50,369 nucleotides of DNA, from assembly GCA_001800185.1 (NCBI GenBank), contig MGUX01000066.1:1-50369 (forward strand), in the 5' to 3' direction. Each line of letters opens with the position of its first letter. The stretch's first letter is position 1. A program made the position numbers and the translations under genes. This DNA comes from Elusimicrobia bacterium RIFCSPLOWO2_12_FULL_59_9. Lineage in GTDB: Bacteria; Elusimicrobiota; Elusimicrobia; O2-12-FULL-59-9. This document shows, one piece after another, positions 5,916 to 38,537 of the stretch. Below the pieces are notes generated by a model. It ran no database searches, was not told the DNA's origin, and saw only the letters and a program-made list of their open reading frames with translations.

Positions 5916-7274
5916 TTAATGCGAAAGTTCTTGCTCCTTCACTTCCCAGACGGTGAGGATGGGCAACAACCGGGTGAATAATAGAAAGAGCAGGGCAAAG
6001 CCGGCGAACCAGGCCGCCGTAATGGACCACTCCACCCAACTGGGGGTGTAATGGGACATTCCCCAAGAAAGGTAGGGGCGCGCCCCGCTGGGAACGATAA
6101 TGCTGTACCTTTCCAGCCACATGCCGATATTGATGACTATGCAGACCCAGGCGAGGTTGCGGACGGTTCTCAGCGGCTTGATGGCCAAGACGGGAAGGGG
6201 AATTAAGAAACAGCAGGCGAACATGGTCCAGAAAAGCCAGGCATACTCGCCAAAAAACTTGGCGTTAAAGACCGCCATGTGGGCCGTCTCGCGGCCATAA
6301 AAGGTCGTGATAAACTCCAAAAAGGTGAAGTAAAACCAGAAACAGCACAGGGCCAGCAGAAACTTCCCGATCCTATCGAAATGGTCGTCGGTAAGATAGG
6401 CGTGCAGGCGGAAGAATCTCCGGATAGCCAGCATGGCCACGATGACGGTGGCAACTCCCGAATAGATGGCGCCCACGACGAAATAGGGTCCGATCACCGC
6501 GGTGTGCCAGCCGGGCTTGGTGGTCAAGCCGAAAACAAATGAGACGTTTGTATGGACTGAGATGACAAGGCAGAATAGGAAGACCGACATTCCTCCCAAG
6601 ATTTTGTGGAGCATCTTCCATTGGGCCTTGGTTCCGGTCCAGCCCAGGGCCAATTTCCGGTAAATAAACACCCTGGCGGGATGAACCACCGTGGAAAGCC
6701 TGTCCCGGCAGAGAGCGATGTCGGGGATGAGAGCGAGATAGAAGTAAAGACATGAGGTCACCAGATAGGTCGAAATGCAGACCACATCCCACAGTATGGG
6801 CGAGGTGAAGTGGGGATAGAGCAGGACGTTCAGCAGCCGCTCCGGCCGCCCAAGGTCCACGATCACGGAACTTGCGCCAAATGGCAGGGAAAACACCGTG
6901 ATGGCCTCCGCAGCGCGGGTGAACGGTCTGCGCCACTCGGTTTCCGTGATCCGCAATATGGAGGATATCAGGGTCCCCGCATGGGAGATGCCGATAAAGA
7001 AGACGAAATTGACCAAGTAGATTCCCCAGAAGACGGGAACGTTAAGTCCCGTTACCTTAAGTCCATTTTTGACCTGCCAAGCCCAGGCTGAGAGACCCCA
7101 AAGAAAAATGCAAGCCAGGACCGCTGCCGCCAGCCAAAAACCTTTTCCTGGTTTCTCAATCAGGGGCTTGAGCATTATAGATTCCAAATTCGCCTCGCTG
7201 GACTTCGCATCCGTCCAGCCCCCTTTCCAACCAGTCAAGGTGTAATCCACATCCCCACTGCCGGGTCGCATCAC
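5916..7274 (-). CDS. NrfD/PsrC-family integral membrane quinone-interacting subunit (ACIII ActC-like)
   Basis: 452 aa with about 10 TM helices. It has the motif PVFWGIYLVNFVFFIGISHAGTLIS, shared with the paralog at 21391-22959. Its start overlaps the stop of the FeS gene. Confidence 0.85.
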   Translation of the reverse strand: MMRPGSGDVDYTLTGWKGGWTDAKSSEANLESIMLKPLIEKPGKGFWLAAAVLACIFLWGLSAWAWQVKNGLKVTGLNVPVFWGIYLVNFVFFIGISHAGTLISSILRITETEWRRPFTRAAEAITVFSLPFGASSVIVDLGRPERLLNVLLYPHFTSPILWDVVCISTYLVTSCLYFYLALIPDIALCRDRLSTVVHPARVFIYRKLALGWTGTKAQWKMLHKILGGMSVFLFCLVISVHTNVSFVFGLTTKPGWHTAVIGPYFVVGAIYSGVATVIVAMLAIRRFFRLHAYLTDDHFDRIGKFLLALCCFWFYFTFLEFITTFYGRETAHMAVFNAKFFGEYAWLFWTMFACCFLIPLPVLAIKPLRTVRNLAWVCIVINIGMWLERYSIIVPSGARPYLSWGMSHYTPSWVEWSITAAWFAGFALLFLLFTRLLPILTVWEVKEQELSH

Positions 7275-8077
7275 CCCTCCCTCAAATAAATCACTTTCGG
7301 TTTTGTCCCAAGCTCCTCCAGGAACCTGTAAGCCCTGTGGCTGTCGGCAAGCCGGGAAACCTCGCTTTCTGGATTATTGAGATCCCCAAACGCGATGGCC
7401 TGGGCCGGACAGGCCGCCTTACAGGCAGGGACGTAGTCCCTTTCTTGGATCTCACGGCCCTCCTCCCGGGCCTTGTCCCTCGCTCTTTGAAGGCGCTGAT
7501 GACAGAACAGGCATTTCTCAACCACGCCTTTGTAACGGACTGAAACATCGGGGTTGAACGACTGGTTTGCTTCCGCGGGCCATTGGGGCTCGCCCCAATT
7601 GAAGAACTTGCAGGTGTAAGGGCAGGCATTGACGCAGTATCGGCAGCCGATGCAGCGGTCGTAAACTTGCCCCACAATCCCTTCCGTGTTCATGAACGTG
7701 GCCGACGTAGGACACACCCGGGTGCAAGGAGGGTCCTCGCACTGCTGGCAAGGCATGGGGATTAAACTCTGGCGGACATGGGAGCCCTCTCCTTCGGTCC
7801 TCGGAAGTATCTTCAGCCATCGGATGACTCTGCCCATGGCGGCTTCTTCGGGACTGCCCAGCATCTGGTTGTTTTCGACGGAACAGGCTACCACGCAACT
7901 CTGGCAACCCGTACAGCGATCCAGGTCGATCACCATGCCCCAGCGGTGCTTGCCCCGGGCCTGAACGATTTCCCCTTCGCTGCCGTCGGAGGCGAAGGCG
8001 CGTGGGACAAAAACCAGAAGCCCGCCGGCGAAAGCCGCCAGCCGCTTCAATAAATTTCTTCGATTCTCAGGCTCCAT
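7271..8077 (-). CDS. Tat-exported 4Fe-4S ferredoxin-type subunit (ActB2/PsrB/NrfC-like)
   Basis: 268 aa with the twin-arginine signal ENRRNLLKRLAAFAGG. Four Cys clusters are present: CTGCQSCVVAC, CQQCEDPPC, CIGCRYCVNACP and CLFC...CKAACP. Confidence 0.9.
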   Translation of the reverse strand: MEPENRRNLLKRLAAFAGGLLVFVPRAFASDGSEGEIVQARGKHRWGMVIDLDRCTGCQSCVVACSVENNQMLGSPEEAAMGRVIRWLKILPRTEGEGSHVRQSLIPMPCQQCEDPPCTRVCPTSATFMNTEGIVGQVYDRCIGCRYCVNACPYTCKFFNWGEPQWPAEANQSFNPDVSVRYKGVVEKCLFCHQRLQRARDKAREEGREIQERDYVPACKAACPAQAIAFGDLNNPESEVSRLADSHRAYRFLEELGTKPKVIYLREG

Positions 8078-10217
8078 AGACTCTCACCCAAGTGTCCTGC
8101 CAGAGCAGTTGGCCGGAGGGGTCCTGCCGCTTCTCAACGATCCTTGCCGGACTCGTTCCGATCCCCTGGGCATACCGGCCCATGGAGGTGTGACCCAAAC
8201 CCAGGGGAAGGGACACAGTATCCTGGCGCATGCCTTCATAATGCCGTGCCCGGGCCAAGATCTTGCCGGCGGGAGACTCAACCCATACCATCTGTCGATC
8301 CGAGATGCCAAGTCTTCTCGCGGCGGCAGGATGAATCTCAACCCACGTCTCCCACTGTTCGCCCAGATGTGCCCCCGCCAAGCTGTGCAGATACGGAAGA
8401 TGCGCGCCCTCTCCGAAGGAAAAGGCCAACGGGGTATGGACGTAAAGTCGCAGGGGAAAATTGGGATATTCATGCGCAAAGGGCTTTGGCTCAATATTTT
8501 TCGTCGAAAACCGGAGCTTCCTGGATTTTGTTTTAAGAGTTGACTTAATGTCGGCTTTCGCTGCCTCGTACTCCCACCAACCTCCTTCTCGCATCTGGCC
8601 CTCGGCCTGAGCTCTTTTGGCTGATTTTTCTAAGGCTTCCACGAAAGTGCTCCAAGGCAGCGCTTTGGAGACGGGCCCGCCCAGGGAATGGGCCAAGTTC
8701 AGGATGAAATCCCCGTGGTCTTCCGTATCGTAGAGCGGCCGGAGCACGGGAGGCGCGAAGCTGATCACGCCCTGTCCCAGAAGAGTTCTCGAAAAGCCGT
8801 ACTGCCAAGACTCCAGGCTGTGGTGGGGCGGAAGGACCAAGTCCGCCAGGCGGGATGATTCATCCAGATAGGGGGAGAAACTTGCGATGAACGGAATTTT
8901 CTCCAGAGCCTTTTCCCAAGAGATGGACTGAGGGGTCGAGAAAACAGGGTTGACCCGCTCCATCCAAAAGACCTCAATAGGACTTTTTGTGGAAGCCAGG
9001 ATGGCTTCCGGAACTTGGTGCAAGGACGGCGCCAGCGGAGGTTTTGGGGGCTCGGAGGAATAGGCGGCGGGCAAGGTGAGTTGGTACCTTTCCGCCTCGG
9101 TAGCCAGGACGCCGCGGCGGACCCCGATGGAGCCCAACAGCGCGTTGAGACTATGAACAGCCGTCTGGTTAAAAAGGCTGCCCCGATAGGTGATGGCGAG
9201 GGCCGGCTGGATGCGGGCCATCTCATGAGCCAACTCTGAAATCTTTTGAGTTTTGACGCTGGTAGCCTCGGCCACCTTTTGGGGAGAATATTCCTTAAGG
9301 ACCAGGGTCTTGAACTCCTCAAAACCCGATGTCCACTGGGAAACGAAGTTCCTGTCATAGAGGTTGTCTCGGACAAGCACGTGAGCGACTCCAAGCGCCA
9401 GGAGCCCTTCCGTATCGGGTCTTATGGAGATCCACTCGTCCGACTTGGCGGCCGTGGTTGAAAGTCTGGGCTCAACCTGGATGATCCGCACTCTCCTTTC
9501 AGGCCTGGCTCGGCGAAGCTCGCTGAAGGCCCTTTGAGCCTCGACCGGTGAAGGGAAGCTCTGCAGCCAGTCCCAGCCGAAAGACACGAGAAGGTTTGCG
9601 TTTTGTAGATCATAGAAGAGGCCCTCCGAAGAGCCGTGCATCATTTTGAAAGCGTCCAAAGGGGCCTCCGCCAACGGCCAGTTCCACTCCCAGAAGTTGG
9701 GCGTCCCGAAGAGCCGTGCAAAACGCTCTTGGATATCGTGCCTGATATCCCGGATGGGCGCCGCCAATACGGCCAACGCCTCCGGCGCATTGCGCCTTAA
9801 GAGGTCTGACAGCTTATCGTGGAGTATCTGATGCGCCTTACTCCAGGGGATTCTTTCCCACTGGCCGGAACCCCTTGGGCCCTTTTGGAGCAGGGGAAAA
9901 CGCAACCGGTCCGGATGGTAGAGGTCCTGAAGGATTGCTCCGCCCTTGGGGCAGTGCGTCCCGAGGCTTACGGGATGGCCGGACATCCCCGAGATTCCCA
10001 CAGCCTTGCCGTTCACGACGCGAACTTGAAGCATGCAGAGGGCCGGACAGAGTTTGCAGAGGGCGGGCTTGTAGGCCTCGGAGTCCAATTTGGGAAGAGG
10101 CTTTTCCTTGGGGGTCAACACCTTGGCTTTGAGGGCCTTGGGAAGGGCAAGCGCCGCGGTTAAAAAGCTTCCCCACTTCAAGAAGTTCTTTCTGGAAATT
10201 TCTATTTCCATAGACAT
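8067..10217 (-). CDS. Molybdopterin-oxidoreductase-like large subunit (ActB1/PsrA-like), Tat signal
   Basis: 716 aa with the signal SRKNFLKWGSFLTAALALP. The N-terminal FS0 motif CKLCPALC...HCPKG (C-x2-C-x3-C...C) is present. Whether a pterin cofactor is retained cannot be judged by eye. Confidence 0.85.
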   Translation of the reverse strand: MSMEIEISRKNFLKWGSFLTAALALPKALKAKVLTPKEKPLPKLDSEAYKPALCKLCPALCMLQVRVVNGKAVGISGMSGHPVSLGTHCPKGGAILQDLYHPDRLRFPLLQKGPRGSGQWERIPWSKAHQILHDKLSDLLRRNAPEALAVLAAPIRDIRHDIQERFARLFGTPNFWEWNWPLAEAPLDAFKMMHGSSEGLFYDLQNANLLVSFGWDWLQSFPSPVEAQRAFSELRRARPERRVRIIQVEPRLSTTAAKSDEWISIRPDTEGLLALGVAHVLVRDNLYDRNFVSQWTSGFEEFKTLVLKEYSPQKVAEATSVKTQKISELAHEMARIQPALAITYRGSLFNQTAVHSLNALLGSIGVRRGVLATEAERYQLTLPAAYSSEPPKPPLAPSLHQVPEAILASTKSPIEVFWMERVNPVFSTPQSISWEKALEKIPFIASFSPYLDESSRLADLVLPPHHSLESWQYGFSRTLLGQGVISFAPPVLRPLYDTEDHGDFILNLAHSLGGPVSKALPWSTFVEALEKSAKRAQAEGQMREGGWWEYEAAKADIKSTLKTKSRKLRFSTKNIEPKPFAHEYPNFPLRLYVHTPLAFSFGEGAHLPYLHSLAGAHLGEQWETWVEIHPAAARRLGISDRQMVWVESPAGKILARARHYEGMRQDTVSLPLGLGHTSMGRYAQGIGTSPARIVEKRQDPSGQLLWQDTWVRVYGA

Positions 10218-10234
10218 ATCTTCATTGACGGCGC

Positions 10235-10744
10235 CTACCTATGGCACGCCATACAATCCGTAGTTATTTTTTCGCGCCTATGGCAGGCCATGCATCCTTC
10301 CATTCGGAGAGGCACGGTCTGTCTCGCCACGGGCCTGTCCATCTTTCCGACATCCCCGTGGCAGACCTTGCAGTCCAGGCCGCCCGACCCCACATGGCGC
10401 TTGTGGGAGAACCGGACGTGCTGCGGAACCGTATAGACCTTTTTCCATGGGATTTCCCGCATCTGCCGGATGTATTCCTCCAAAGTTTTTGGGGTTTTGA
10501 GGCCGGGTTTGTCAGGTTGATGGCACAAGGCGCAGGTGGAGGTGTTCGGGATGCCGGCTTTCGCGGAGTCCTTAGCCCCCACGTGGCAGGCGTCGCAAGA
10601 GATACCGAAGTCCACGTGCTTTTTATGGGTGAAGGGCACTGGCTGTGAGACCTCCCACGTCCTGTATGCCGACAAACCTATCCCCGCAATTCCCGCAGCT
10701 ACGACCATCCAACCGAGCCAAGCGTGCAGCCACTCCCGCGGCAT
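10235..10744 (-). CDS. Membrane-anchored pentahaem cytochrome c (ACIII ActA-like, cytochrome c3/c7 family)
   Basis: 169 aa with one N-terminal TM helix. Five CxxCH motifs are present (CDACH, CALCH, CKVCH, CMACH, CMACH). It is a paralog of 25818-26318. Confidence 0.85.
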   Translation of the reverse strand: MPREWLHAWLGWMVVAAGIAGIGLSAYRTWEVSQPVPFTHKKHVDFGISCDACHVGAKDSAKAGIPNTSTCALCHQPDKPGLKTPKTLEEYIRQMREIPWKKVYTVPQHVRFSHKRHVGSGGLDCKVCHGDVGKMDRPVARQTVPLRMEGCMACHRREKITTDCMACHR

Positions 10745-10771
10745 CCAATCCTCCCCAAGCTACGCCGTTGC

Positions 10772-11677
10772 TTATCTGACCGACTCTACCGCTTTTTCCG
10801 CCTTTCCCGGACCGGAGCCCTTGGTTGGGGCAAACTCCTTGGCCAAGGATGTCAACCCCGTCATAGCCCCAAGGCCCATCGTCTCCACCGCGCTGGACGG
10901 CACTATCACCACCGTGGAGTTCTGCCGCATTCCTTCCAGGAGGATGTTCATGGCCCTCAGGTGCAGAGCCACGGGACTCTCTACGTACGAATTGGAGGCT
11001 TCCTTGAACTTATTGGCTACCTGGAGTTCCGATTCAGCCAGAATCACGCGCGCCTGGCGCTCCCGCTCCGCCTGAGCCTGCATGGACATGGCGTCTTGGA
11101 GCCCCACCGGGATTTTCACGTCCCGGATTTCCACAGAAAGCGCCTTAATGCCCCAGGCTTCCGTGCGCTCATCAATCATCTGGCAGAGCTTCGCGTCGAT
11201 CTTCCGCCGTCCGATCAGCATTTCAGAAAGATCCGTCTCTCCGATCATGTCTCGCAACGCCGTCTGGGACGACCAGGAGATCGCCTCCTTGTAGTTTTCA
11301 ACCTCCAAGGCCGCTTTCACCGGGTCCATAACCCTCCAAAAAAGCACCGCATCCACGTCCACGGGCACGCTGTCTTTGGTCAGGGTCTCCTCCGCGGTGA
11401 AGGGCGTCGTGATCGTCCTTAGGTCAATCCAATAGGGGATCGTATCGAAGAAAGGAAAGACTCCGAACAAGCCCGGCCCCCGCAAGCGGTGGAACCTGCC
11501 AAGCCTTAGCACCACAGCCTTCTGCCATTGACGGGCCACCCGCAGAGATATGACCCCGAAGAGTCCCGTGGCTGCTCCTATCAATGCTGCCAGCGGGGTG
11601 CCAAGCCAAGCGCTGACCAATCCTCCGGTGACCGCCAAAACAACGAACAGGCTTAGCGTCATTGGGTGAATACCCAT
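10772..11677 (-). CDS. SPFH/band-7 (stomatin/prohibitin-like) membrane scaffold protein
   Basis: It has N-terminal TM helices, then WQKAVVLRLGRF...VDVDAVLFWRV...AQAERERQARVILAE. I prefer the ATG at 11677 (MGIHPM), 9 nt after AGGAGG; the ORF track starts at 11686. It is about 80% identical by eye to 26356-27249. Confidence 0.9.
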   Translation of the reverse strand: MGIHPMTLSLFVVLAVTGGLVSAWLGTPLAALIGAATGLFGVISLRVARQWQKAVVLRLGRFHRLRGPGLFGVFPFFDTIPYWIDLRTITTPFTAEETLTKDSVPVDVDAVLFWRVMDPVKAALEVENYKEAISWSSQTALRDMIGETDLSEMLIGRRKIDAKLCQMIDERTEAWGIKALSVEIRDVKIPVGLQDAMSMQAQAERERQARVILAESELQVANKFKEASNSYVESPVALHLRAMNILLEGMRQNSTVVIVPSSAVETMGLGAMTGLTSLAKEFAPTKGSGPGKAEKAVESVR

Positions 11678-11697
11678 GTCATGCACCTCCTATTTTC

Positions 11698-12243
11698 TTA
11701 TTCATCGCGCGCTTCCTCCACATTCTGTCCTGCCGATTCCTTTGGCTCCTGGCTTTCCGTTGGCGATTTGAGACTAAAAAGATAGTGAGCCAAATCCTCA
11801 ATTTCTCCATCAGACGCCACGCCTTCCCAGGACGGCATGGCCAGGGGAGGCTCCAACTTGTCGTCATCCAACTTGGCAGGATGGGCGCCTTTGCGGATTT
11901 TGTCCTTCAGGTCCTTCCAAGTGAAGGCGTCGGCCAGGTCGTAAAGGTTCGGCACCATGCCTTCGGGGTCCGCGTTCGGATTTTTCACGCCACCCTGGCC
12001 GTCGGGTCCGTGGCAAACCCCGCAACGGAGCTCCCGAAAAAAATGGCGGCCTCGTTTTATAGGCGACTCTTCTTCGGATGAGCCAAGTTTTGCGGCGGAA
12101 CCGTCGAAAGTCTTTTCAGTGGCTGAAATGGCCCATAAGGGGCTCCACAATCTGGCCCGATATGCCAAAAACCCGTAGAAAGAGAAAAGTCCACCCCATA
12201 CGGAAGCCACAAGGATAATGAGATTGCGGGCTACGCTGTCCAT
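11698..12243 (-). CDS. Membrane-anchored monohaem class I cytochrome c
   Basis: 181 aa with an N-terminal TM helix (IILVASVWGGLFSFYGFLAY). It has a single CGVCHGPDGQG motif and a distal Met region (LAMPSW). Confidence 0.75.
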   Translation of the reverse strand: MDSVARNLIILVASVWGGLFSFYGFLAYRARLWSPLWAISATEKTFDGSAAKLGSSEEESPIKRGRHFFRELRCGVCHGPDGQGGVKNPNADPEGMVPNLYDLADAFTWKDLKDKIRKGAHPAKLDDDKLEPPLAMPSWEGVASDGEIEDLAHYLFSLKSPTESQEPKESAGQNVEEARDE

Positions 12244-12251
12244 GGCATTTT

Positions 12252-12680
12252 TTACTCAGCGCTTTCCTCTCCCGTTTTTTTGATCAGCTCCTTTTTGCGG
12301 ACCGAGGAATCGTACTTTAGGAATTCGATGATTTTGCCCGCGCTCTTGGCGTCAAGCCCGGAGCGCTTTTTCTTCCGCATTTTTCCGACATAGGGCTCCC
12401 ATTCTTGCGCCCCATAAGGGGCGTTGATGGGTCTGGCCAAAGTGTGGCATTTGGAACATTTCTTGGCGAAGGTTTTGTAATTGGCCTGCTGTTCTTGCGG
12501 ATAGTTGGAAACGTCAATGCTATCCGGGCCGCCGTCCCAGGGGAAGGTCTTCTCGGACGATGCTTCCGATGGCGATACGCCCGCGGGGGCTTCGCTTTTC
12601 TGGGCATAGAGATGCGCGTTTCCAATCCCCAAGGCCGCGCTGAGAACCGCCAAGCCCAAAGTGCGACTATTCATTTTCAT
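12252..12680 (-). CDS. Small periplasmic monohaem cytochrome c, family copy 1 of 3 in this window
   Basis: 142 aa with a Sec signal peptide. The conserved core YPQEQQANYKTFAKKCSKCHTLARPINAPY...FLKYDSSVRKK is shared with 20918-21394 and 33749-34303. Confidence 0.7.
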   Translation of the reverse strand: MKMNSRTLGLAVLSAALGIGNAHLYAQKSEAPAGVSPSEASSEKTFPWDGGPDSIDVSNYPQEQQANYKTFAKKCSKCHTLARPINAPYGAQEWEPYVGKMRKKKRSGLDAKSAGKIIEFLKYDSSVRKKELIKKTGEESAE

Positions 12681-12796
12681 GATGACTCCTAAATCGTGAC
12701 CGGCCCCGCGGAGCGGGCTTCTCCCTTTTCGGGATCGGGATGCGCGGATTGCGCACCGCGCCGGTCTTTATTAAGAACCGCTAATGCTCCGGCGGC

Positions 12797-14071: not shown

Positions 14072-14114
14072 GTGTTTCCTCCAGATCACGAACCTTGCGC
14101 TTCCCCCCTCTAAA

Positions 14115-14130: not shown

Positions 14131-14218
14131 GGAATTTTTTGCCTCTGGCCGCGATAAAACGGATTTAACAGGCAAATGCTTCCAATTTCTTGGAAAGAGG
14201 TTTTAAGTTGTTGAAAAC

Positions 14219-31228: not shown

Positions 31229-31234
31229 ATGTTT

Positions 31235-31795: not shown

Positions 31796-33633
31796 CTCAT
31801 TTTTCTCCTTACGTAGCCGGTAAGCCAGGCCCAGTTCATCGGGTAAACGTCGGGATCAAAAATGACCCAATAGAAGTGCCATGCCGCGATGGCGGCGCAG
31901 GCCAGGATGGCCTCATAGAAATGGACGGCCGTGGCCAGGTCGGATACCCACATGGGAAAGTGCTTGAGGGTGAAATCGGAAAATACGAGAATCCCTCCCG
32001 AAATCACCATCACCACGGAGCCCCAGATGAGGGCCCAATACTCCGACTTCTCGATGTAGTTGTAGGGGGTGGAAAGATGCGGCGGAACGCGGCGCAGCCC
32101 CGCATTGAAGGCCGGCATGCGCAGGGCCTGCAGGACGTCTTCGGGTCTTGGCAGCATGGACTTGAGGACCTCTCTGCCCCTGGGGCTGAAGGCGAGATAG
32201 GCCGCATGGTAGACTCCGAGCAGGCAGAACAGGAGGGCGGCCCAGCGGTGGAAAGAGCGCCTTAAATCTTCCGCGGCGAGGGCCAGGGGATAAGCCCACC
32301 AGGTCTCCGAATATTTGAGGGCGAAGCCGGTGTAGCCTAGCCAGAAGAAAGCGAGCAGCAAAACGCCGTGCTGCAGGCGTTCGTTGAGGCTCATGCGCAT
32401 TTCATCCTGCGGGTGGCCATGGGGCGGCGGCGGGCCGGCGCGCAGAAGCTTTTTGACAAAGTCCAGGCCGTTATGTAATATCATCCCGCCGATCACCAGC
32501 GGGATGAGGATCAGGTAGAACCAGGTGGCGGCCCGCAGCGACCAGTGCTGGTTGGCGGGCGGAGGCCCATGAACGTAGCCATGGGCAAGCTGCGCCCCCG
32601 CGCCGGGATGGCATTTCCCGCAGGTGTTGCTGAGGTTGGAGCGGTGAGTGGACGAGCGGGGATCGGTATGGGCCAGCACGTCATGAAAACCGTGGCAGGA
32701 GGCGCAGTTGGCCACCATCAGGTCGCCTCTTTGGTAAGCCAGGCCGTGGTAGGTGTCCATATAGGTCTTGAGGCGGTCCACCGGAAGGTCGAACTTGCGC
32801 GTCAGCCTTTCGGAGGCGTGGCAGCCGGCGCAGGTTTTGGTGATGGCGCCGGTCCAACTGGAGGAGAAGGGGTCTTTGGGGGAGCGGATGGTATGCTCGC
32901 CATGGCAGTTCGTGCACACCGGCGCCTCCTTGATGCCCGCGCGTGTGGCCTGACCGTGGATGCTGACCTGGTAGGCTGAAAGAGCGTTGTTGTGGCAGCG
33001 GCCGCAGGTTTCAGGGATGTTGCGCCAGAAAATGCGGCTTGAGCTGTTGGCGGCGCCGTGCAGGTCGTGAGAGCCGTGGCAATCGCTGCAGACGGCGGCG
33101 TTGATTTTTCCTTGAGCGAAGGCCTCGCCGTGAACCGTATGAGCGTAGGAATCGACGGGCTGTAGCTCCGACAGCTTGAATTTTTCCATCCGCTTCAGGT
33201 CCTTATGGCAGCGGCCGCAGGTGTCCGGGATGTTCTTGCGGTTGACGGGAGATTGCGGATTTCTGGAGTTGAGCAAGGTGTGGGTCCGTCCGTGGCAGTC
33301 TTTGCAGGCCGCCGCTTCGCTCAGGCCCCGCGCCACGGCCTGGCCGTGGTCGGAGTTCATGTAAATTTGGGACTCGATGCGGTGGCAGGTTTTGCAGGAG
33401 ACCGGAGCGAGCTTCTCCGGATGCGGCAGATTGGCGGCGTCCGCGTGGCAGGAAATGCACAGATGCCGGCCGTGGATGGAGGCTTTGTGGCTTTTGAAGT
33501 CCACGCGGGGCGCTCCCATCAGCCCCTCGGAATGGCAAGCCATACAGTCCTCGTTTTGCTGCCCCCAAGCGGGGAGGCCGGTCGACAGGATGGCCAGGAC
33601 CCAAACGCTCGACAGCGCGGCTTTGATAGTCAT
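31792..33633 (-). CDS. CbcL-like fusion: periplasmic 11-haem cytochrome c domain plus C-terminal dihaem cytochrome b (FdnI/HydC-type) membrane domain
   Basis: 613 aa with a signal peptide and 11 CxxCH motifs in the first roughly 345 aa. About 5 TM helices with conserved His follow (LQHGVLLLAFFW, FHRWAALLF, AVHFYEAILA). Confidence 0.8.
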   Translation of the reverse strand: MTIKAALSSVWVLAILSTGLPAWGQQNEDCMACHSEGLMGAPRVDFKSHKASIHGRHLCISCHADAANLPHPEKLAPVSCKTCHRIESQIYMNSDHGQAVARGLSEAAACKDCHGRTHTLLNSRNPQSPVNRKNIPDTCGRCHKDLKRMEKFKLSELQPVDSYAHTVHGEAFAQGKINAAVCSDCHGSHDLHGAANSSSRIFWRNIPETCGRCHNNALSAYQVSIHGQATRAGIKEAPVCTNCHGEHTIRSPKDPFSSSWTGAITKTCAGCHASERLTRKFDLPVDRLKTYMDTYHGLAYQRGDLMVANCASCHGFHDVLAHTDPRSSTHRSNLSNTCGKCHPGAGAQLAHGYVHGPPPANQHWSLRAATWFYLILIPLVIGGMILHNGLDFVKKLLRAGPPPPHGHPQDEMRMSLNERLQHGVLLLAFFWLGYTGFALKYSETWWAYPLALAAEDLRRSFHRWAALLFCLLGVYHAAYLAFSPRGREVLKSMLPRPEDVLQALRMPAFNAGLRRVPPHLSTPYNYIEKSEYWALIWGSVVMVISGGILVFSDFTLKHFPMWVSDLATAVHFYEAILACAAIAAWHFYWVIFDPDVYPMNWAWLTGYVRRKMR

Positions 33634-33687
33634 GACGATTCATCACAGGCAACAAATCCGCCGTTACCGGACTGCGGACTCCTTTAT

Positions 33688-33703
33688 TGGCAAGGTTGTT
33701 GCA
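33688..33703 (+). promoter_or_regulatory. Sigma54 promoter P6 for the monohaem lipoprotein gene
   Basis: The plus strand reads TGGCAAGGTTGTTGCA, 46 nt upstream of the ATG at 33749. Confidence 0.6.
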
Positions 33704-33748
33704 GGAAGGGTCTGCGACCGGTTTCGGCTTTAAACCGGAGTGAGGCGC

Positions 33749-34303
33749 ATGAAAATATTTTCCATAAAAAACGGATGGATAGGCGCTCTGACGGCGGCTG
33801 CGGGACTCAATCTGGCGAGCTGCAAGAAGCCTCCGCAGGCTTCGCCCGAGCCGCGCTTCAGCGCGGAGCAGTTTGAGGCGCGCTTTTATTACGATCTCGG
33901 AGCCGCGGAGATCGACATCAGCTCATATCCTAAGAAACAGCAGGACGGCTACGCCGTTTTCGCCAGGACGTGCTCTCAGTGCCACACTTTGGCGCGGCCC
34001 ATCAACGCTCCTTTCGCCGTTCGTAAAGATTGGGAAAGATACATCCAGCGCATGCATATCCGGACGGAGAGCCGGCCCGGCACCGGCATATCCAAAGCCG
34101 AAGCCGCCGTCGTCCTGGATTTTTTGGTTTACGATTCCAAGATTCGTAAACTGGATAACAAAAGCGAATTCGCGGCCAAGACGGAGGAACTGCGCCGGCT
34201 TTTTGATGAGGTGGTGAAGGAACGCGACAGGCTCAATCTGGGGAAAGTCGAAGGCAAGGCGCGCCCCCCCGGCCCGTATACGGGAGACAAGCCCCGGCCT
34301 TGA
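33749..34303 (+). CDS. Small monohaem cytochrome c lipoprotein, family copy 3
   Basis: ATG 33749 lies 8 nt after GGAG. The signal MKIFSIKNGWIGALTAAAGLNLASC carries the lipobox LASC. The core is YPKKQQDGYAVFARTCSQCHTLARPINAPF...FLVYDSKIRK. Confidence 0.75.
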   Translation: MKIFSIKNGWIGALTAAAGLNLASCKKPPQASPEPRFSAEQFEARFYYDLGAAEIDISSYPKKQQDGYAVFARTCSQCHTLARPINAPFAVRKDWERYIQRMHIRTESRPGTGISKAEAAVVLDFLVYDSKIRKLDNKSEFAAKTEELRRLFDEVVKERDRLNLGKVEGKARPPGPYTGDKPRP

Positions 34304-34304
34304 T

Positions 34305-34320
34305 TGGCCGTTTTGTTGCA
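34305..34320 (+). promoter_or_regulatory. Sigma54 promoter P7 for the decahaem/porin operon
   Basis: The plus strand reads TGGCCGTTTTGTTGCA, 63 nt upstream of ATG 34383. Confidence 0.65.
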
Positions 34321-34382
34321 AATGAGGATAGCGTGAGATGGCGTTCGACATAAGCTGTAAATCAAGATAGGGAGAAAAGACG

Positions 34383-35348
34383 ATGAAGAAAACCATCCAT
34401 TGGATCGCATCGGTTATGGCTGTGTTGACCGTCCTGTTGTTTAGCCGGGGCATAGAACCCCGCGTATCCGCCCAAGAGGGGGAAGCCGTCTCAACCGCCC
34501 CGTCCACCGAGCAGCCCGCGGCAAAAACCGCCGAATTTGTGGGCGCTGAAACCTGCATCGCCTGCCACGCGGACAGGGCTTCCTTCAAGGATAATATCCA
34601 TGCCAGAGCCTGGCCGGCCGCCAAAGGGATCGATTTTTCAAAATCCTGCGAGACCTGCCACGGGCCCGGCTCCTTGCACGGCGGGGCTGCCGGGGACAAG
34701 GGCAATGCCGATTTTTTCACCATCAAAAATCCGAAAACCCTTTCCAGCAAGAACGTTGCAAAATTGTGCCTGGAGTGCCACCAGGGCGGTAATCGCTTTC
34801 ATTGGGACGGTGGTTCCCATGATTCGCGGGACGTTTCCTGCCTTTCCTGCCACAGCCTGCACCACGCCAAGAGCAAGGAGGAAAAATTCCTCCTGGCGAA
34901 AACCACGGAAATGGAAACCTGCTATCAATGCCATAGCGTGAAAAAGGCGCAGTTTCAGCGCTCCTCCCATATGCCTCTGCATGAGGGCAAGCTGACCTGC
35001 ACCAGTTGCCACAATCCCCACGGCAGCGTCGGCCCCACTTTGTTGAAGCAGGCTTCCGTCAACGAAAACTGCCTTTCCTGCCACGCCGAGAAAAAAGGGC
35101 CGTTTTTGTGGGAGCATGCCCCGGTCCGCGAGAACTGCTTGAACTGCCACACCCCTCACGGCTCGAAACATGAAAAGCTCCTTAAAACCAAGCGGCCCAG
35201 GCTTTGCCAGCAGTGCCACATCATCACGCGGCACCCTTCCACCGCCAGCACGCCCTCCAGTATTACCCTTGTGGGACGGAGCTGCACGGAGTGCCATTCG
35301 CAAATCCACGGGTCGAATCATCCCGCAGGCGTTCGCTTCCAGAGGTAA
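34383..35348 (+). CDS. Periplasmic decahaem cytochrome c of the MtrA/DmsE/MtoA/PioA family
   Basis: 321 aa with a signal peptide and ten CxxCH motifs. It has the family-typical C-terminus CTECHSQIHGSNHPAGVRFQR. An MtrB/PioB-like barrel gene follows immediately. Confidence 0.85.
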   Translation: MKKTIHWIASVMAVLTVLLFSRGIEPRVSAQEGEAVSTAPSTEQPAAKTAEFVGAETCIACHADRASFKDNIHARAWPAAKGIDFSKSCETCHGPGSLHGGAAGDKGNADFFTIKNPKTLSSKNVAKLCLECHQGGNRFHWDGGSHDSRDVSCLSCHSLHHAKSKEEKFLLAKTTEMETCYQCHSVKKAQFQRSSHMPLHEGKLTCTSCHNPHGSVGPTLLKQASVNENCLSCHAEKKGPFLWEHAPVRENCLNCHTPHGSKHEKLLKTKRPRLCQQCHIITRHPSTASTPSSITLVGRSCTECHSQIHGSNHPAGVRFQR

Positions 35349-35357
35349 GGAGGAAAT

Positions 35358-37541
35358 ATGCGTTTACAAAAAATCATCCCGGCCACGTTGGCAGCCCTCA
35401 TTTTGGCGCCCGCCGTATGGGCCTCCGACCCCAGCGTCAGTTTGGACTTCGGGGGACAGGCGGTTCGAGGCGACGTCGCCTCTTCCAAATTCGATGAGTA
35501 CATAGACATTCCGCGTGGATTTTACGTGGAAAGTTTGGGCTTGCGGAATTATGGAGACGATTATTATTTCCGGCTGGACGGAGCGAAGCCCGGATTTAAG
35601 GACCAGAGCCTGAACATCGAGACGGGCATTTGGGGACTCCATAAGTTTTCTCTCGGTTACGATCAAACTCCCCACAACCTGTCCAACAGCGCGCGGACGT
35701 TTCTCAGAAACGACGGGGAGGGGGTTTTCACGTTGCCGGACAATCTGCAATCAAGCTTGCAGACGTCCACCACCAACGCGGCGGGTTTCTTTCCGTGGGC
35801 GCCCGGCATTCCCTTAAGGGTGGACCGGACCAAGAGCAGCCTTGCCTACACCTACAGCCCGACGGGACCTTGGCGGGTCAATCTCGGCTACTCCGCTGAG
35901 AAGAAAGACGGGCAGAAGAACATCGGCGTAAACTTCGGTTTCCAGATCGCAGAGGCCCCGGAGCCAGTGGATTACCTGACTCAGGATCTAAACTTCGGGA
36001 CGGAGTATGTCGGCAAAACTCTGGGCTGGAGGGCGAATTACAACTTTTCAGCCTTCGCCAACGGCATTCACTCGTTGACGGTCGACAATCCGGTCAATTT
36101 GACCGATACCGCGGCGAGCGCCAGCGGGAGCTCCACTCCCGGCACGGCCCGGCTTGCGCTGCCTCCCAACAACCATTCCCACCAGTTCAGCACCGACTTT
36201 TCCGCAAAGACCACGGCCAAAAGCCATCTAAACGCCAACGCCTCCTTCACGTCTCTAAGGCAAAACGATCCCTTCCTGCCTCCGACCTCCAATGCGGTTA
36301 TTTTGAGCAAGGCCCGGGTGGCGGGCTTCGTGCCTCAATCGAGCCTGGACGGCATGGTCAACACCCTCAACGCGGCTTTGAGGTGGAATTGGAAGCCGGT
36401 AACCCCCGTGTCGGTGAACGTTCGCGCCAAGCACTACGACATCGACAACCGGACGCCCGAACTGACGCTCGAGCGGATTCCGTACGATTCTTCCTATTCC
36501 ACCGGAACCCCAACGAAGTCGTTTAAATACGGGAATGTCAGGCGGAGCCTTCCTTACAGCTACGATAAGACCAACGCCGGCGCCGACTGTTATTACTCCA
36601 TCGCCAAGCCTTTGAGCATGAAGCTGGCCTATGACTGGGAGAGGATAGGGTACGACTTTTTCGAGGCGAAGGCCACCCAGGAGGATATTTACGCAGTGTC
36701 CTTTAAGGCGGGTCCATTCTATGACTTGGTCGTGAGGCCGAGCTATCAATACGCGCGCCGCATCGTGAAGGATTATAACGAGGAGCTTCACTGGGCCGAG
36801 GAGTCATTCCCTCTGGGCGAGGGCACGGCTCTTGGGGAAATGCCGCAGTTGAGAAAATTTGACTTGGCGGGCCGCAAACGCCATAAGGTTACGGTGCGCG
36901 CCGACTGGGATCCGCTGGATTATCTCAATGCCGGAGTGGATTACGGCTTGACTAAAGACGATTATGACGCGGAATATGGGGTCCAGGACGGGCGGACTCT
37001 CTATTACTCGGTGGACGCAAGCGTTAGTCCCTCGGATAGGCTGGGCATTTACGCAGATTATAGCTGGGAACAGATGTCCGCATTCACCCGTTCCCGCTAT
37101 CGCAGTTCAACAGCCGACGATCTCGTTGCCAACGACTGGGCGGGAGTCCTCAAGGACACGGCCCATTCCGTGGATGTCGGCGTCCAATCCGTTTTGCTAA
37201 AAGACAAACTAGACGCGGATTTGGGCTGGGGCATGACCTATCTCAAGGGCCTGCAGCAGGCGAGCAATCCGGGCACCATCACCACCGCCAGCGCTTTGGC
37301 CACGGATTTCCCCAATACTTATTCTCGCCTGCAGAAGCTCCGCGCCAGCATGCGCTACCGCTGGTCTCAAAGCCTGACGGCCAGGCTTGGTTACGAGTAT
37401 CAGCGCTACACCGAAACCGACTGGTCGCAGGATGACTTGGAAGTCTATCAGAAGGATTGGGCCACCTCGGTGTTTCTGGGGGCCGCGCAGACCGGCTACG
37501 AGGCGCACTTGATTTCGTTGGGCCTGTCCTACGCGTTTTAA
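35358..37541 (+). CDS. MtrB/PioB/MtoB-family outer-membrane beta-barrel (porin partner of the decahaem cytochrome)
   Basis: 727 aa with a signal peptide (ALILAPAVWA). The N-terminal motif region is SSKFDEYIDIPRGFYVESL. Alternating beta-strand pattern runs throughout, with the C-terminal OMP signal LSYAF. Confidence 0.8.
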   Translation: MRLQKIIPATLAALILAPAVWASDPSVSLDFGGQAVRGDVASSKFDEYIDIPRGFYVESLGLRNYGDDYYFRLDGAKPGFKDQSLNIETGIWGLHKFSLGYDQTPHNLSNSARTFLRNDGEGVFTLPDNLQSSLQTSTTNAAGFFPWAPGIPLRVDRTKSSLAYTYSPTGPWRVNLGYSAEKKDGQKNIGVNFGFQIAEAPEPVDYLTQDLNFGTEYVGKTLGWRANYNFSAFANGIHSLTVDNPVNLTDTAASASGSSTPGTARLALPPNNHSHQFSTDFSAKTTAKSHLNANASFTSLRQNDPFLPPTSNAVILSKARVAGFVPQSSLDGMVNTLNAALRWNWKPVTPVSVNVRAKHYDIDNRTPELTLERIPYDSSYSTGTPTKSFKYGNVRRSLPYSYDKTNAGADCYYSIAKPLSMKLAYDWERIGYDFFEAKATQEDIYAVSFKAGPFYDLVVRPSYQYARRIVKDYNEELHWAEESFPLGEGTALGEMPQLRKFDLAGRKRHKVTVRADWDPLDYLNAGVDYGLTKDDYDAEYGVQDGRTLYYSVDASVSPSDRLGIYADYSWEQMSAFTRSRYRSSTADDLVANDWAGVLKDTAHSVDVGVQSVLLKDKLDADLGWGMTYLKGLQQASNPGTITTASALATDFPNTYSRLQKLRASMRYRWSQSLTARLGYEYQRYTETDWSQDDLEVYQKDWATSVFLGAAQTGYEAHLISLGLSYAF

Positions 37542-37556
37542 GAAGGAGGGAAACGC

Positions 37557-38537
37557 ATGAAACGGTTTGTCGCCTTATGCTTGTTGTTTTGCGTTTCCGG
37601 CGTCCGCGCGGCCGACAGCGGCAAGGGCAAGGAAGTTTTCGGCGCCAAATGCGCCTCCTGCCACGGCAAAGAGGCCAAGGGCAATCTTGCCATGGCCAAG
37701 ATGTTCAAGCTGGAGCCGGCGGCTTTGGACTTGGCGGACGAGGCGACCTTGACCAAGACCGACGATGAGCTTATTGCGATCGTGACCAAGGGAAAAAACA
37801 AGATGCCGGTATTTGAGGGCAAGCTTTCCAAAAAGGAGATTGCTGATTTGATCGCCTACCTGCGCGGGCTGGGAGGAGGCAAGGCCAAGGCTGCCAAGAA
37901 AGCCGATGGAGGGCCCGGCGCCAAGTTGTACGAGGCCAAGTGCGCCTCCTGCCACGGCAAAGACGGCAAGGGCAAAGAGGCCATGGCCAAGATGTTCAAG
38001 CTGGAGCCTGCGGCTTTGAATTTGATAGACGAGCCCACCTTGGCCCAAACTGACGAGGAACTGATCGCCACTACGACTAAGGGAAAGAACAAGATGCCGG
38101 CCTTCGAGGGCAAGCTCTCGGGCGAGGAACTCGCCGTCCTGGCCGCCTACATGCGCGAGCTGGGCGGGGGTGTGCCCAAGGCCGCCGGCGCGGGCGACGT
38201 GGAGGCCGGCGCCAAGCTCTATGAGGCCAAATGCGCGTCCTGCCACGGCAAAGACGGCAAGGGCAAAGAGGCCATGGCCAAAATGTTCAAGCTGGAGTTG
38301 GCGGCCCTGGACCTGATTGACGAGGGGAGCCTTTCTAAAACCGACAAAGAGCTCTTCGACCTCACGGCCGAGGGCATCAACAAGATGCCGGGCTATAAGG
38401 ACAAAATGAAGGCCGAAGAGATAGACGCCGTCATCGCCTATATGCGCTCGCTGGCTCCGGCACCGGTACCGGCGGAGGCGGCGCCCGAGGAAGAGGCAAA
38501 ACCTCAAGAGGGCGGGCAGGAGCCGGAAGGCGACTAA
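37557..38537 (+). CDS. Periplasmic trihaem protein made of three tandem class I monohaem cytochrome c domains (MtoD-like position)
   Basis: 326 aa with a signal peptide. It has three copies of KCASCHGK(D/E)(G/A)KG...KGKNKMP...(I/A)AY(L/M)R. The C-terminal tail is rich in Pro, Glu and Ala. Confidence 0.85.
   Translation: MKRFVALCLLFCVSGVRAADSGKGKEVFGAKCASCHGKEAKGNLAMAKMFKLEPAALDLADEATLTKTDDELIAIVTKGKNKMPVFEGKLSKKEIADLIAYLRGLGGGKAKAAKKADGGPGAKLYEAKCASCHGKDGKGKEAMAKMFKLEPAALNLIDEPTLAQTDEELIATTTKGKNKMPAFEGKLSGEELAVLAAYMRELGGGVPKAAGAGDVEAGAKLYEAKCASCHGKDGKGKEAMAKMFKLELAALDLIDEGSLSKTDKELFDLTAEGINKMPGYKDKMKAEEIDAVIAYMRSLAPAPVPAEAAPEEEAKPQEGGQEPEGD
37626..38498 (+). repeat. Three tandem 291-bp (97-codon) repeat units inside the cytochrome c gene
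   Basis: The TGCGC(C/G)TCCTGCCAC haem-motif anchors lie at 37650, 37941 and 38232, exactly 291 bp apart. There are long identical runs, for example ggcaaagacggcaagggcaaagaggccatggccaa. Confidence 0.9.

Follow-up and report, generated by a model that had tools for sequence, protein, structure and literature searches.

The locus

The window analysed here is the whole stretch of 50,369 nt taken from the forward strand (positions 1 to 50,369) of contig MGUX01000066.1, which belongs to the metagenome-assembled genome (MAG) of Elusimicrobia bacterium RIFCSPLOWO2_12_FULL_59_9 (GCA_001800185.1), an uncultured bacterium of Rifle groundwater; the window covers this contig in full. Its central part (positions 5916-38537) is a gene cluster of about 33 kb, referred to below as the island, in which both known kinds of outer-membrane conduit for iron oxidation, a Cyc2-family cytochrome-porin and an MtoAB-type cytochrome/porin pair, are combined with six quinone-coupled membrane complexes (Table 1). 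This anatomy (two different conduits, six quinone modules, a common promoter class, and haem and iron genes in the flanks) had been proposed in an earlier note on the same DNA and it held in the analysis reported here. Known families account for every protein of the island except a small monohaem cytochrome, and the most useful new feature is the conserved operon link of Cyc2 to a split complex that resembles both Qrc and alternative complex III (ACIII).

The 44 non-overlapping open reading frames (ORFs) of the window were translated, and 66 CxxCH motifs were found in 17 of them, all between positions 7271 and 38537. For the two Fe-S (iron-sulfur) subunits at 7271-8077 and 22956-23783, haem sites were ruled out, as their CxxCH motifs lie within ferredoxin-type domains. 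Once these two were set aside, the count given earlier was reproduced exactly: 15 cytochrome genes, all inside 5916-38537, with 64 CxxCH, one CX3CH (gene g29) and one CX4CH (g30). No haem motif was present among the 14 flanking ORFs. The G+C content of the window is even (57-66%), and an Rfam search of the entire window gave zero matches. Transmembrane and signal-peptide calls were made with a simple hydropathy scan.

Loci from other assemblies are designated by handles (L001 and so on). An exact look-up of the MtrB-like protein retrieved the same DNA in an ENA re-assembly of a Rifle sample (Anantharaman 2016) and in three other data sets. Independent contigs, 99.8-100% identical to the window, span positions 4219-16999 (L016/L017), 12486-25411 (L015) and 25342-47541 (L001/L002); because these near-identical contigs tile the island, its 33-kb contiguity is not an artefact of one assembly.

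Table 1. Features of the window, with position, strand and the basis of each assignment.
Feature	Position	Strand	Basis or remark
Haem and cytochrome c maturation genes	1647-5739	-	Pfam, NCBIfam
Radical-SAM/SPASM AhbD-like haem b synthase	1647-2723	-	NCBIfam 399 vs cut-off 500
Glutamyl-tRNA reductase HemA	2745-3839	-	
CcsB	3832-4620	-	NCBIfam 237.6 vs cut-off 187.6
ResB-like	4633-5739	-	
Sigma-54-type promoter (TGGCAATTTCGTTGC)	5765-5779	-	ahead of resB-ccsB-hemA
Qrc/ACIII-type complex 1 and SPFH gene	5916-11686	-	Pfam; NCBIfam Qrc models below cut-off; PDB matches
Set 1 NrfD/ActC-like quinone subunit (g6)	5916-7274	-	
Set 1 Fe-S subunit	7271-8077	-	
Set 1 Tat-signal molybdopterin-like subunit without Mo ligand	8067-10217	-	
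Set 1 membrane-anchored pentahaem ActA/QrcA-like cytochrome (g9)	10235-10744	-	
Set 1 SPFH/Band 7	10772-11686	-	Pfam
Membrane-anchored class I monohaem cytochrome c	11698-12243	-	PF00034, PF13442; hydrophobic segment residues 4-22
Small secreted monohaem cytochrome, copy 1	12252-12680	-	beside Cyc2; no Pfam match
Cyc2-family fused monohaem cytochrome-porin, 424 aa	12797-14071	-	motif, AlphaFold 2 model, Foldseek
Sigma-54-type promoter	14116-14130	-	ahead of Cyc2 operon
Two-component system	14219-17127	-	Pfam
NtrC-type sigma-54 activator	14219-15580	-	
Histidine kinase	~15577-17127	-	
Sigma-54-type promoter	17157-17171	-	ahead of kinase/regulator pair
DsrOP-like module	17284-20910	-	Pfam, NCBIfam
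DsrOP-like module, NrfD-family DsrP-type subunit	17284-18561	-	DsrP 423 bits vs cut-off 350
DsrOP-like module, Fe-S DsrO-like subunit	18564-19493	-	DsrO 177 vs cut-off 200
DsrOP-like module, tetrahaem cytochrome c	19493-20134	-	
DsrOP-like module, pentahaem cytochrome c	20131-20910	-	
Small monohaem lipoprotein cytochrome, copy 2	~20918-21397	-	MRIRTSG...LAAC lipobox; beside second Qrc/ACIII-like set
Qrc/ACIII-type complex 2 and SPFH gene	21391-27249	-	Pfam; QrcB 259, below cut-off 440
Set 2 NrfD	21391-22959	-	
Set 2 Fe-S subunit	22956-23783	-	
Set 2 molybdopterin-like subunit	23771-25813	-	
Set 2 pentahaem cytochrome	25818-26318	-	
Set 2 SPFH	26356-27249	-	
Sigma-54-type promoter	27305-27319	-	ahead of ten-gene unit 27249-17284, second SPFH gene first
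Rieske/cytochrome b complex	27332-29736	-	Pfam; NCBIfam cytochrome b6 and ExtP ~234 bits
Subunit IV fused to three class I c-type haem domains	27332-28570	-	
b6-type cytochrome b	28574-29248	-	
Rieske protein	29245-29736	-	
Sigma-54-type promoter	30088-30102	-	ahead of Rieske/cytochrome b unit
NapC/NirT-type tetrahaem membrane domain fused to 11-haem domain, 15 haem motifs	30107-31795	-	PF03264
CbcL/MtoC-type: 11-haem periplasmic domain fused to HydC/FdnI-type cytochrome b domain	31792-33633	-	PF01292, 11 CxxCH
Sigma-54-type promoter	33688-33702	+	ahead of 33740-34303; conserved in L011
Small monohaem lipoprotein cytochrome, copy 3	33740-34303	+	directly upstream of mtoA; syntenic in L009, L011
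Sigma-54-type promoter	34305-34319	+	ahead of mtoA; conserved in L009
MtrA/MtoA-type periplasmic decahaem cytochrome	34383-35348	+	TIGR03508, 10 CxxCH, PDB 6R2Q_A
MtrB/MtoB/PioB-type outer-membrane porin	35358-37541	+	PF11854, TIGR03509, PDB 6R2Q_B
Secreted trihaem class I cytochrome c	37557-38537	+	Pfam, NCBIfam; syntenic in L009, L010
Sigma-54-type promoter	38551-38565	+	ahead of feoB; conserved in L010
FeoB, DtxR-family repressor fused to FeoA, hemerythrin-domain protein	38692-41985	+	Pfam

The Cyc2-family conduit

The product of 12797-14071 starts with a hydrophobic segment (signal peptide) and contains a single CxxCH, at residue 59 of the 424-aa form. The Cyc2 family was defined by Keffer et al. 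(PMC8406198) through a signal peptide, one CXXCH, the motif AxPxFAR[Q/K][T/Y] upstream of it, PxL four residues after it and a length of at least 365 aa. All of these sequence traits were found in the window protein, which reads AVPVFARKY-GIS-CSQCH-TAF-PVL and fits the published consensus; the motif was kept in 38/38 aligned homologues, including remote ones in clusters with Chlorobiaceae proteins. Searches with Pfam and NCBIfam gave zero matches for this protein. An AlphaFold 2 (AF2) model computed from the homologue alignment (pLDDT 79.8, pTM 0.77) has a small helical haem domain and, after it, 16 long strands. In Foldseek its best PDB matches were general and phosphate porins of 16 strands (E down to 9e-12); OprO (4RJW) and OprP (2O4V), with which Cyc2 was originally compared, were among them. 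The earlier assignment as a Cyc2-like fused cytochrome-porin was therefore borne out by the published motif, by length and by a predicted 16-strand barrel.

In its signal peptide, single CXXCH, flanking motifs and predicted 16-strand porin the protein resembles Cyc2PV-1 of Mariprofundus and Cyc2 of Acidithiobacillus (PMC8406198). It differs in its porin part, which shares just 20-23% identity with the distant homologues that were retrieved (those of the Chlorobiaceae-containing cluster included), and in its operon, where the other genes encode a Qrc/ACIII-type complex, an SPFH protein and a new small cytochrome. An operon of this composition was not found described for model iron oxidisers in the literature examined. 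The Cyc2 family members with verified activity are Fe(II) oxidases (PMC8406198).

Conservation of the Cyc2 unit

The Cyc2 unit is ordered as kinase, activator, Cyc2, small cytochrome, class I cytochrome, SPFH and Qrc/ACIII-like set. The same order was found in L005 (GCA_016180815.1, Cyc2 69% identity), in L012 (GCA_964359165.1, 73%) and in L007 (GCA_016204975.1, 45%), where resB/ccsA precede the unit and feoB follows it; in L013 (Cyc2 43% identity) the order is kept from Cyc2 onward. Accordingly, the class I cytochrome at 11698-12243 is conserved in L005, L007, L012 and L013, and the kinase-activator pair adjoins Cyc2 in L005, L007 and L012 as well as in the window. Because the neighbours outside the unit differ between loci, it was taken to be a self-contained module. 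The second complex also has a syntenic counterpart: in L014 its orthologue stands after genes for a sigma-54 activator, a cytochrome c and an SPFH protein, and before one for another Cyc2-motif protein. By an indirect count, in which equal lengths of the longest contig were taken as the sign, nine Cyc2-like matches apparently co-occur with molybdopterin-like matches. A more distant Cyc2 homologue (L008, 35% identity) stands in a locus without a Qrc/ACIII-like complex.

The Cyc2-motif proteins of the relatives include one encoded after mtoAB (L009 5100-6419) and one after the second-type Qrc/ACIII-like set (L014 7637-8941), with the motifs ITAWARKYGVSCNVCH and AMPQFARRYGVSCTMCH, respectively. 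In L013, genes for a type II DMSO-reductase of the Nxr/Nar group (beta subunit, chaperone, and a haem b gamma subunit fused to cytochrome c; positions 1-2422) lie directly upstream of the Cyc2-Qrc/ACIII-like operon. In L007, an rpoN-like gene lies between the kinase and activator genes.

Two split Qrc/ACIII-type complexes

Each Qrc/ACIII-type complex is encoded by one of two paralogous five-gene sets (set 2 is 41-74% identical to the set 1 orthologues), in which the pentahaem cytochrome is anchored in the membrane and the molybdopterin-like and the four-cluster Fe-S protein each carry their own signal of the twin-arginine translocation (Tat) type. Three subunits resemble solved ACIII chains: the pentahaem cytochrome g9 matched ActA (8K9E_A, E=2e-23; 6F0K_A, E=2e-22), the Fe-S subunit matched the C-terminal Fe-S domain of ActB (E=1e-58) and the NrfD subunit g6 matched ActC (6F0K_C, E=4.5e-73). 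The molybdopterin-like subunit matched ActB weakly (E=1e-9 to 2e-11), and the N-terminal halves of these proteins resemble ArrA, PsrA and PhsA. Among the NCBIfam models, those of Qrc were the best matches for the cytochrome, molybdopterin-like and Fe-S subunits of set 1, and QrcB was the best for the molybdopterin-like subunit of set 2. All the equivalog scores were below cut-off (score/cut-off: QrcA 88.5/180; QrcB 300 and 259/440; QrcC 275.6/400; QrcD 45 and 37/570).

In a residue-level alignment to ArrA and PsrA, the Cys that coordinates molybdenum (Mo) is replaced in the molybdopterin-like subunit (NWPLAEAP). At this position, Cys, selenocysteine or Ser occurs in 0/23 aligned family members, and the four cysteines of the FS0 cluster are invariant across the family. 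A catalytic molybdoenzyme (arsenate, polysulfide or thiosulfate reductase) was therefore ruled out for 8067-10217 and 23771-25813, the Mo-ligand Cys being replaced in every aligned member. As this ligand is missing family-wide and the FS0 cluster is kept, the complex would be of a non-catalytic, electron-transfer type.

The two sets had been described as ACIII-like ActA/B/C sets. Both are present with the three resemblances given above, and they are not strict ACIII: ActB is split as in Qrc, ActF is missing and no ActD candidate stands out. Pfam revealed no second NrfD-type gene (ActF) in either set (among the relatives one is present only in L007), and no ActD model was included in the search for ActD. 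The adjacent small monohaem family, tested through g32 against solved chains, gave no match to ActE. In their ActA-, ActB Fe-S- and ActC-like subunits and their lack of a Mo ligand the sets are like ACIII (ActABCDEF; PDB 6F0K, 6BTM, 6LOD), from which they differ by an ActB equivalent made of two genes, whose molybdopterin-like part is nearer to ArrA/PsrA than to ActB, and by the SPFH gene that always precedes the complex. With Qrc (QrcABCD of sulfate reducers) they share the four-gene plan of a multihaem cytochrome c, a Mo-free molybdopterin-like protein, an Fe-S protein and an NrfD protein; unlike in Qrc, the membrane subunit is far closer to ActC, and the partners are Cyc2 and class I cytochromes instead of a hydrogenase, a formate dehydrogenase or cytochrome c3. 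Sets 1 and 2 are thus predicted to be split Qrc/ACIII hybrids of the electron-transfer type.

An SPFH/Band 7 (stomatin/HflK-like) gene precedes every Qrc/ACIII-type set seen, in the window and in L005, L007, L012, L013 and L014; we know of no described respiratory complex with an SPFH partner. The Tat motif of the 8067-10217 protein (residues 7-13) is SRKNFLK, with Arg-Lys, and that of its paralogue and most orthologues is SRRNF[LF]K.

The Mto conduit and its partners

The decahaem protein encoded by 34383-35348 scored 264.7 with TIGR03508 (cut-off 192.2), contains 10 CxxCH and matched Shewanella MtrA (PDB 6R2Q_A) over residues 20-321 with E=3e-70. The mtoB-like gene begins 10 nt past the end of mtoA, and its product scored 374.2 bits with PF11854 (cut-off 23) and 324.9 with TIGR03509 (cut-off 240) and matched MtrB (6R2Q_B) with E=7e-22. 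Both members of the pair, read earlier as MtrA/MtoA- and MtrB/PioB-like, thus exceeded curated cut-offs in the profile search. No MtrC/OmcA-type gene was found in the island by profile search (TIGR03507 gave only weak partial matches, with E of at least 7e-4). As no such gene adjoins mtoAB, the layout is the Mto/Pio one of Fe(II) oxidisers and not the MtrCAB one of reducers.

The locus was compared with the MtoAB/MtoDABC clusters of Sideroxydans, Gallionella and Dechloromonas. An MtrA-type gene followed by an MtrB/PioB-type porin gene without MtrC is common to all, as are a CbcL/MtoC-type quinone module and a small monohaem cytochrome beside mtoAB. The window departs from these clusters in its small cytochrome, which belongs to no Pfam family, shows no detectable similarity in sequence to a solved chain and has a predicted fold that matches no solved one; in the trihaem class I cytochrome gene and then feoB that follow mtoAB; in the divergent unit, which holds a second quinone module of NapC type with 15 haems; and in its host, which is a member of the Elusimicrobia. 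A cluster in which mtoAB adjoins a CbcL-type mtoC is an already described type (PMC6295460).

When a one-genome-per-species collection was scanned with MtoB as query, the close relatives were three loci in only two other Elusimicrobia MAGs. One MAG (L010/L011) retains the order CbcL-type / small cytochrome-MtoA-MtoB-...-trihaem-FeoB, with identities of 82-97%. In the other (L009) the genes after mtoAB are one for a cytochrome c and a second Cyc2-like gene, behind the same sigma-54 promoter type. The adjacency of both conduits therefore recurs at least once (L009).

Two conserved units were thus recognised, [kinase-activator-Cyc2-two monohaem cytochromes-SPFH-Qrc/ACIII-like] and [CbcL-type / small cytochrome-MtoA-MtoB-trihaem-FeoB]. 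The synteny survey that had been suggested for the whole arrangement showed that each unit is conserved in other Elusimicrobia, as a separate, smaller module; the island is an aggregation of modules found separately elsewhere in the lineage.

The CbcL-type protein beside the Mto genes matched PF01292 (61.5, cut-off 30.1) over residues 414-593 and has at least four hydrophobic segments in the crude hydropathy scan; a PDB sequence search with it returned zero matches. The CbcL-like 11-haem/cytochrome b fusion proposed earlier agrees in architecture with the CbcL/MtoC/MtrH family, in which an N-terminal domain with 3-23 CXXCH is joined to a membrane domain of HydC/FdnI-type cytochrome b (PMC6295460).

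The NapC-like part of the neighbouring gene matched PF03264 (42 bits, cut-off 24.1); its haem motifs are three CxxCH and one CX4CH, and residues 37-63 form a hydrophobic segment. After residue 186 the reading frame is interrupted by an in-frame TGA (31235-31237, - strand), so that in the window, as in L001, the gene falls into two ORFs (186 aa and 373 aa). In the near-identical sister assemblies L002 and L003 this codon is GGA (Gly) and a single 562-aa, 15-haem gene results; as TGA stands where the sisters have GGA, the NapC-type fusion was considered broken in this strain. The NapC/NirT-like anchor claimed earlier thus stands by its PF03264 match, and the anchor and the next 11-haem ORF form one gene in the sister strains. 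Selenocysteine at the TGA was ruled out, since the sisters carry a Gly codon there and no Cys codon.

These membrane modules and the porin pair also bear on an outward direction of flow, in which the CbcL-, NapC- and Qrc/ACIII-type modules would oxidise quinol supplied by heterotrophy, and MtoAB, perhaps together with Cyc2, would pass the electrons on to an acceptor outside the cell, such as Fe(III), Mn(IV), humic substances or a partner cell. CbcL and CymA/NapC were first defined as the quinol oxidases of metal reducers, MtrAB is reversible, and ACIII proper, which three window subunits resemble, is a quinol:cytochrome c oxidoreductase. Moreover, Geobacter has several quinol-oxidising modules for acceptors of different potential (PMC6295460), the flanks of the island encode anaerobic ferredoxin-level enzymes, and the MAG is without a reported oxygen reductase. 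This reading is nevertheless rated as rather unlikely: the literature examined presents Cyc2 solely in the role of an Fe(II) oxidase (PMC8406198), no other component is linked as tightly as Cyc2 to the Qrc/ACIII-type complex, no surface cytochrome of MtrC/OmcA/OmcS type was found in the island, and ImcH, a family confined to reducers, did not turn up among the profile matches.

Other quinone modules

All six inner-membrane quinone modules counted earlier are present. The proposed Rieske/cytochrome b complex was recovered by Pfam and NCBIfam matches. The set described as tetrahaem/FeS/NrfD exists, its NrfD protein being of the DsrP type and a pentahaem cytochrome being also part of it. Compared with DsrMKJOP, the window cytochromes are tetra- and pentahaem, as against the trihaem DsrJ; neither DsrM nor DsrK was found in the 17284-20910 unit, and DsrMK and DsrAB are absent from the window. 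In an independent contig (L015 6851-8128, corresponding to window 17284-18561; 99.93% identical to the window over 12.9 kb), codon 213 in the gene of the DsrP-type NrfD subunit is a stop codon, in place of the Ser codon of the window. Near-identical strains thus have nonsense changes in different quinone modules, which suggests redundancy among the modules, or possibly a sequencing error.

The sulfur-metabolism origin of the DsrP/DsrO-like and Qrc-like best matches is one ground for supposing that the island has no metal substrate and serves as a periplasmic respiratory network for nitrogen or sulfur compounds, with conduits of non-iron roles. The Cyc2 module of L013 follows a type II DMSO-reductase enzyme, the MAG scored positive for periplasmic NxrA, and Cyc2 homologues are numerous in organisms that are not known as iron oxidisers (PMC8406198). 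We judge such a network highly improbable, because the island has no catalytic nitrogen or sulfur subunit, both molybdopterin-like subunits being without a Mo ligand; the DsrMK and DsrAB proteins are missing, as described above; and two independent outer-membrane conduits have no obvious role with soluble periplasmic substrates.

Sigma-54-type promoters and regulation

The -24/-12 pattern of sigma-54 promoters was searched as exact matches to TGGC-N6-GTTGC. Eight matches were found in the window, compared with 0.64 expected by chance, and 8/8 lie upstream of a transcription unit and in its orientation; the earlier claim of one promoter class holds. The element is kept upstream of orthologous units in six related loci. 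A scan for sigma-70-type promoters over 26200-39000 gave matches not above chance. The island encodes a two-component system of its own, with Pfam matches to Sigma54_activat (219 bits), Response_reg, HisKA and HATPase_c (the kinase is 516 aa in another assembly). Most likely, as predicted from these elements, the island is under common sigma-54 control.

An upstream region of about 140 bp is duplicated (5765-5900 and 17157-17280, - strand) before resB and the histidine kinase gene. It contains the sigma-54-type element, a near-palindrome (GCTCCATGATCCGAT[G/C]ACGGAGC) and CCACTCGACCACTGGACCACTCGA repeats, and may be an enhancer site for the NtrC-type activator; the near-palindrome is missing from the other promoters. 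A common palindromic activator site, TGATC-N-GATCA, was unsupported: it is confined to the duplicated region, where both copies have it, and is no more frequent than by chance. The Rieske gene has an unusually long leader (window 29737-30106), which separates it from its sigma-54-type promoter by about 350 nt and is without an Rfam match. In this leader lie a perfect inverted repeat with arms of 16 nt (29883-29898 / 29902-29917) and another repeat pair, of 10 nt.

The promoters bear on a mixed, bidirectional use of the island, in which the Cyc2-Qrc/ACIII-like operon would take up electrons from Fe(II) and the Mto/CbcL/NapC side would export them; with a single sigma-54 regulator, the cell could switch between iron redox states, or cycle them, at interfaces of oxic and anoxic conditions or of nitrate and iron. 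Each half is conserved as a unit of its own and is found apart from the other elsewhere in the Elusimicrobia, the halves have separate promoters, the Mto side is divergent from the CbcL/NapC unit, and the families involved are reversible. Against this, the same promoter type on all units and one activator in the island suggest co-expression and not a switch, and in L009 the Cyc2-like gene stands after mtoAB, behind the same promoter type; the mixed use is considered unlikely.

The small monohaem cytochrome family

The three small monohaem cytochromes of the island are paralogues by alignment. Their family has 45 detectable relatives, all the named ones being from Elusimicrobia apart from one from Omnitrophica. 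Members gave no Pfam match, and a search with copy 3 gave zero sequence matches among solved PDB chains. The AF2 model is all-helical and confident (pLDDT 84.8), and no PDB fold matched it at E<=0.001. The small monohaem cytochrome is thus a predicted new family of restricted lineage distribution.

Flanking genes

The flanks are as described earlier, with ResB, CcsB, HemA and an AhbD-like protein on one side and FeoB, DtxR-FeoA, Oor, Hdr and Etf on the other, by Pfam and NCBIfam. The start of resB was placed at about 5739 because other assemblies call ResB at 368 aa. For the gene beside hemA (1647-2723), AhbD, of the sirohaem-dependent route, was the best match, below cut-off; this AhbD-like match hints that the organism may make haem via an alternative pathway. 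Linkage of feoB was seen in three genomes: in the window, in L007 (after the Cyc2 module) and in L010 (after the Mto module). Beyond the iron genes, a ferredoxin-level block (41982-50228) comprises a four-subunit 2-oxoacid:ferredoxin oxidoreductase, an HdrA2-type protein, an HdrBC-like CCG protein and an Etf gene, of which the window holds the start. The HdrA2-type protein has 1188 aa, contains a fused MvhD/FlpD domain and scored 1108 bits (cut-off 1100). As no sigma-54-type element precedes the block, it apparently lies outside the regulon.

Direction of electron flow

The island is most likely a sigma-54-controlled regulon for extracellular electron transfer that takes electrons from Fe(II), a reading held here at even confidence. 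Cyc2 would oxidise soluble Fe2+, MtoAB would oxidise Fe(II) in solid or complexed form, and the electrons would travel via the small periplasmic cytochromes. Part of the flow would be driven uphill into the quinone pool by the Qrc/ACIII-, MtoC- and NapC-type modules, at the cost of proton-motive force, and the remaining electrons would pass to a terminal reductase encoded elsewhere in the genome.

Uptake from Fe(II) is favoured because the Cyc2 proteins of tested activity are Fe(II) oxidases, because Cyc2 is the conduit most tightly coupled to an inner-membrane complex, because the Mto side is of the oxidiser type (no MtrC, and an MtoC-type partner), and because feoB and the cytochrome maturation genes carry the same promoter type as the conduits. 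It is favoured also because ACIII and bc1 are the accepted candidates for passing electrons from Fe(II) to quinone in Gallionellaceae (PMC10734462); in the Gallionellaceae and Zetaproteobacteria, the uphill push has been proposed for ACIII, bc1, CymA and MtoC.

Several points weigh against this reading. Qrc, the best profile match of the complexes, normally reduces menaquinone using low-potential electrons, not uphill. The direction of electron flow is not readable from sequence, so that the uptake direction and the terminal acceptor are ones that we infer, as is the lithotrophic metal-oxidising lifestyle suggested in the earlier note. The MtrAB, CymA/NapC and CbcL families work both ways (PMC6295460). 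For the Cyc2 that was tested, a potential of about +208 mV is given (PMC8406198), from which quinone reduction would need an energy input that the modules would have to supply; within the Cyc2 family, Cluster 3 members have a function that is regarded as uncertain (PMC8406198). The window encodes neither a terminal oxidase nor a terminal reductase, and a published table lists this MAG, which is 78% complete, with no oxygen reductase, no complex I and no carbon-fixation route (complex III, periplasmic NxrA and a nitrogenase paralogue were scored positive, and ACIII negative). Finally, nonsense polymorphisms in two modules among near-identical strains hint at redundancy or relaxed selection.

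Relation to described systems

In Sideroxydans lithotrophicus ES-1 the cyc2 and mto genes are at separate loci. The earlier note recognised no described arrangement in which both conduits and so many modules are contiguous behind one promoter class. The presence of both conduits in one organism is already known from ES-1 (PMC9731265, PMC8788666), and in this the window is like it; the contiguity, the number of modules, the operon link of Cyc2 to the Qrc/ACIII-type complex and the phylum are new. A further likeness is the downstream route to quinone, proposed for ES-1 to pass through bc1/ACIII and CymA/MtoC (PMC9731265, PMC8788666). The differences are that in the window the conduits and six quinone modules are contiguous and share one sigma-54 promoter type, and that they belong to another phylum.

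In the literature that was searched, no paper was found under the MAG name and none that describes this island arrangement. There is one report of Cyc2 in an Elusimicrobiota MAG, which came from acid mine drainage (PMC8357290), and a count of CbcL homologues covers two other MAGs of Elusimicrobia. The present MAG is part of the main comparative study of the Elusimicrobia, where iron, Mtr and extracellular electron transfer are not mentioned.

Significance

Iron oxidation at neutral pH has been tracked mostly via cyc2 and mtoA and attributed to a few proteobacterial and Chlorobi lineages, and the Elusimicrobia have long been regarded as a mainly fermentative phylum. The window, from a member of this phylum, holds the most complete and most compact such gene set that we could find.

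A further, doubtful proposal is that a groundwater clade of Elusimicrobia consists of enzymatic, possibly nitrate-dependent Fe(II) oxidisers. These would possess a dedicated, hitherto undescribed supercomplex in which Cyc2 is joined by two small cytochromes (one with a new fold), a scaffold of the SPFH type and the split Qrc/ACIII-type complex, the last acting as an Fe(II)-cytochrome:quinone oxidoreductase, and their terminal enzyme would be a periplasmic type II DMSO-reductase (Nxr/Nar-like). The lead to such a terminal enzyme comes from the gene neighbourhood in L013 and from the scoring of the MAG as NxrA-positive and oxygen reductase-negative.

The common sigma-54 promoters and the sensor kinase encoded within the island provide a handle on the inducing signal. 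Cyc2 is physically linked to a specific inner-membrane complex, and the link is kept over 43-73% identity and two paralogous complexes. It makes the long-open step of the iron-oxidation pathway, from the outer-membrane oxidase to the quinone pool for reverse electron flow, a testable proposal with named genes.

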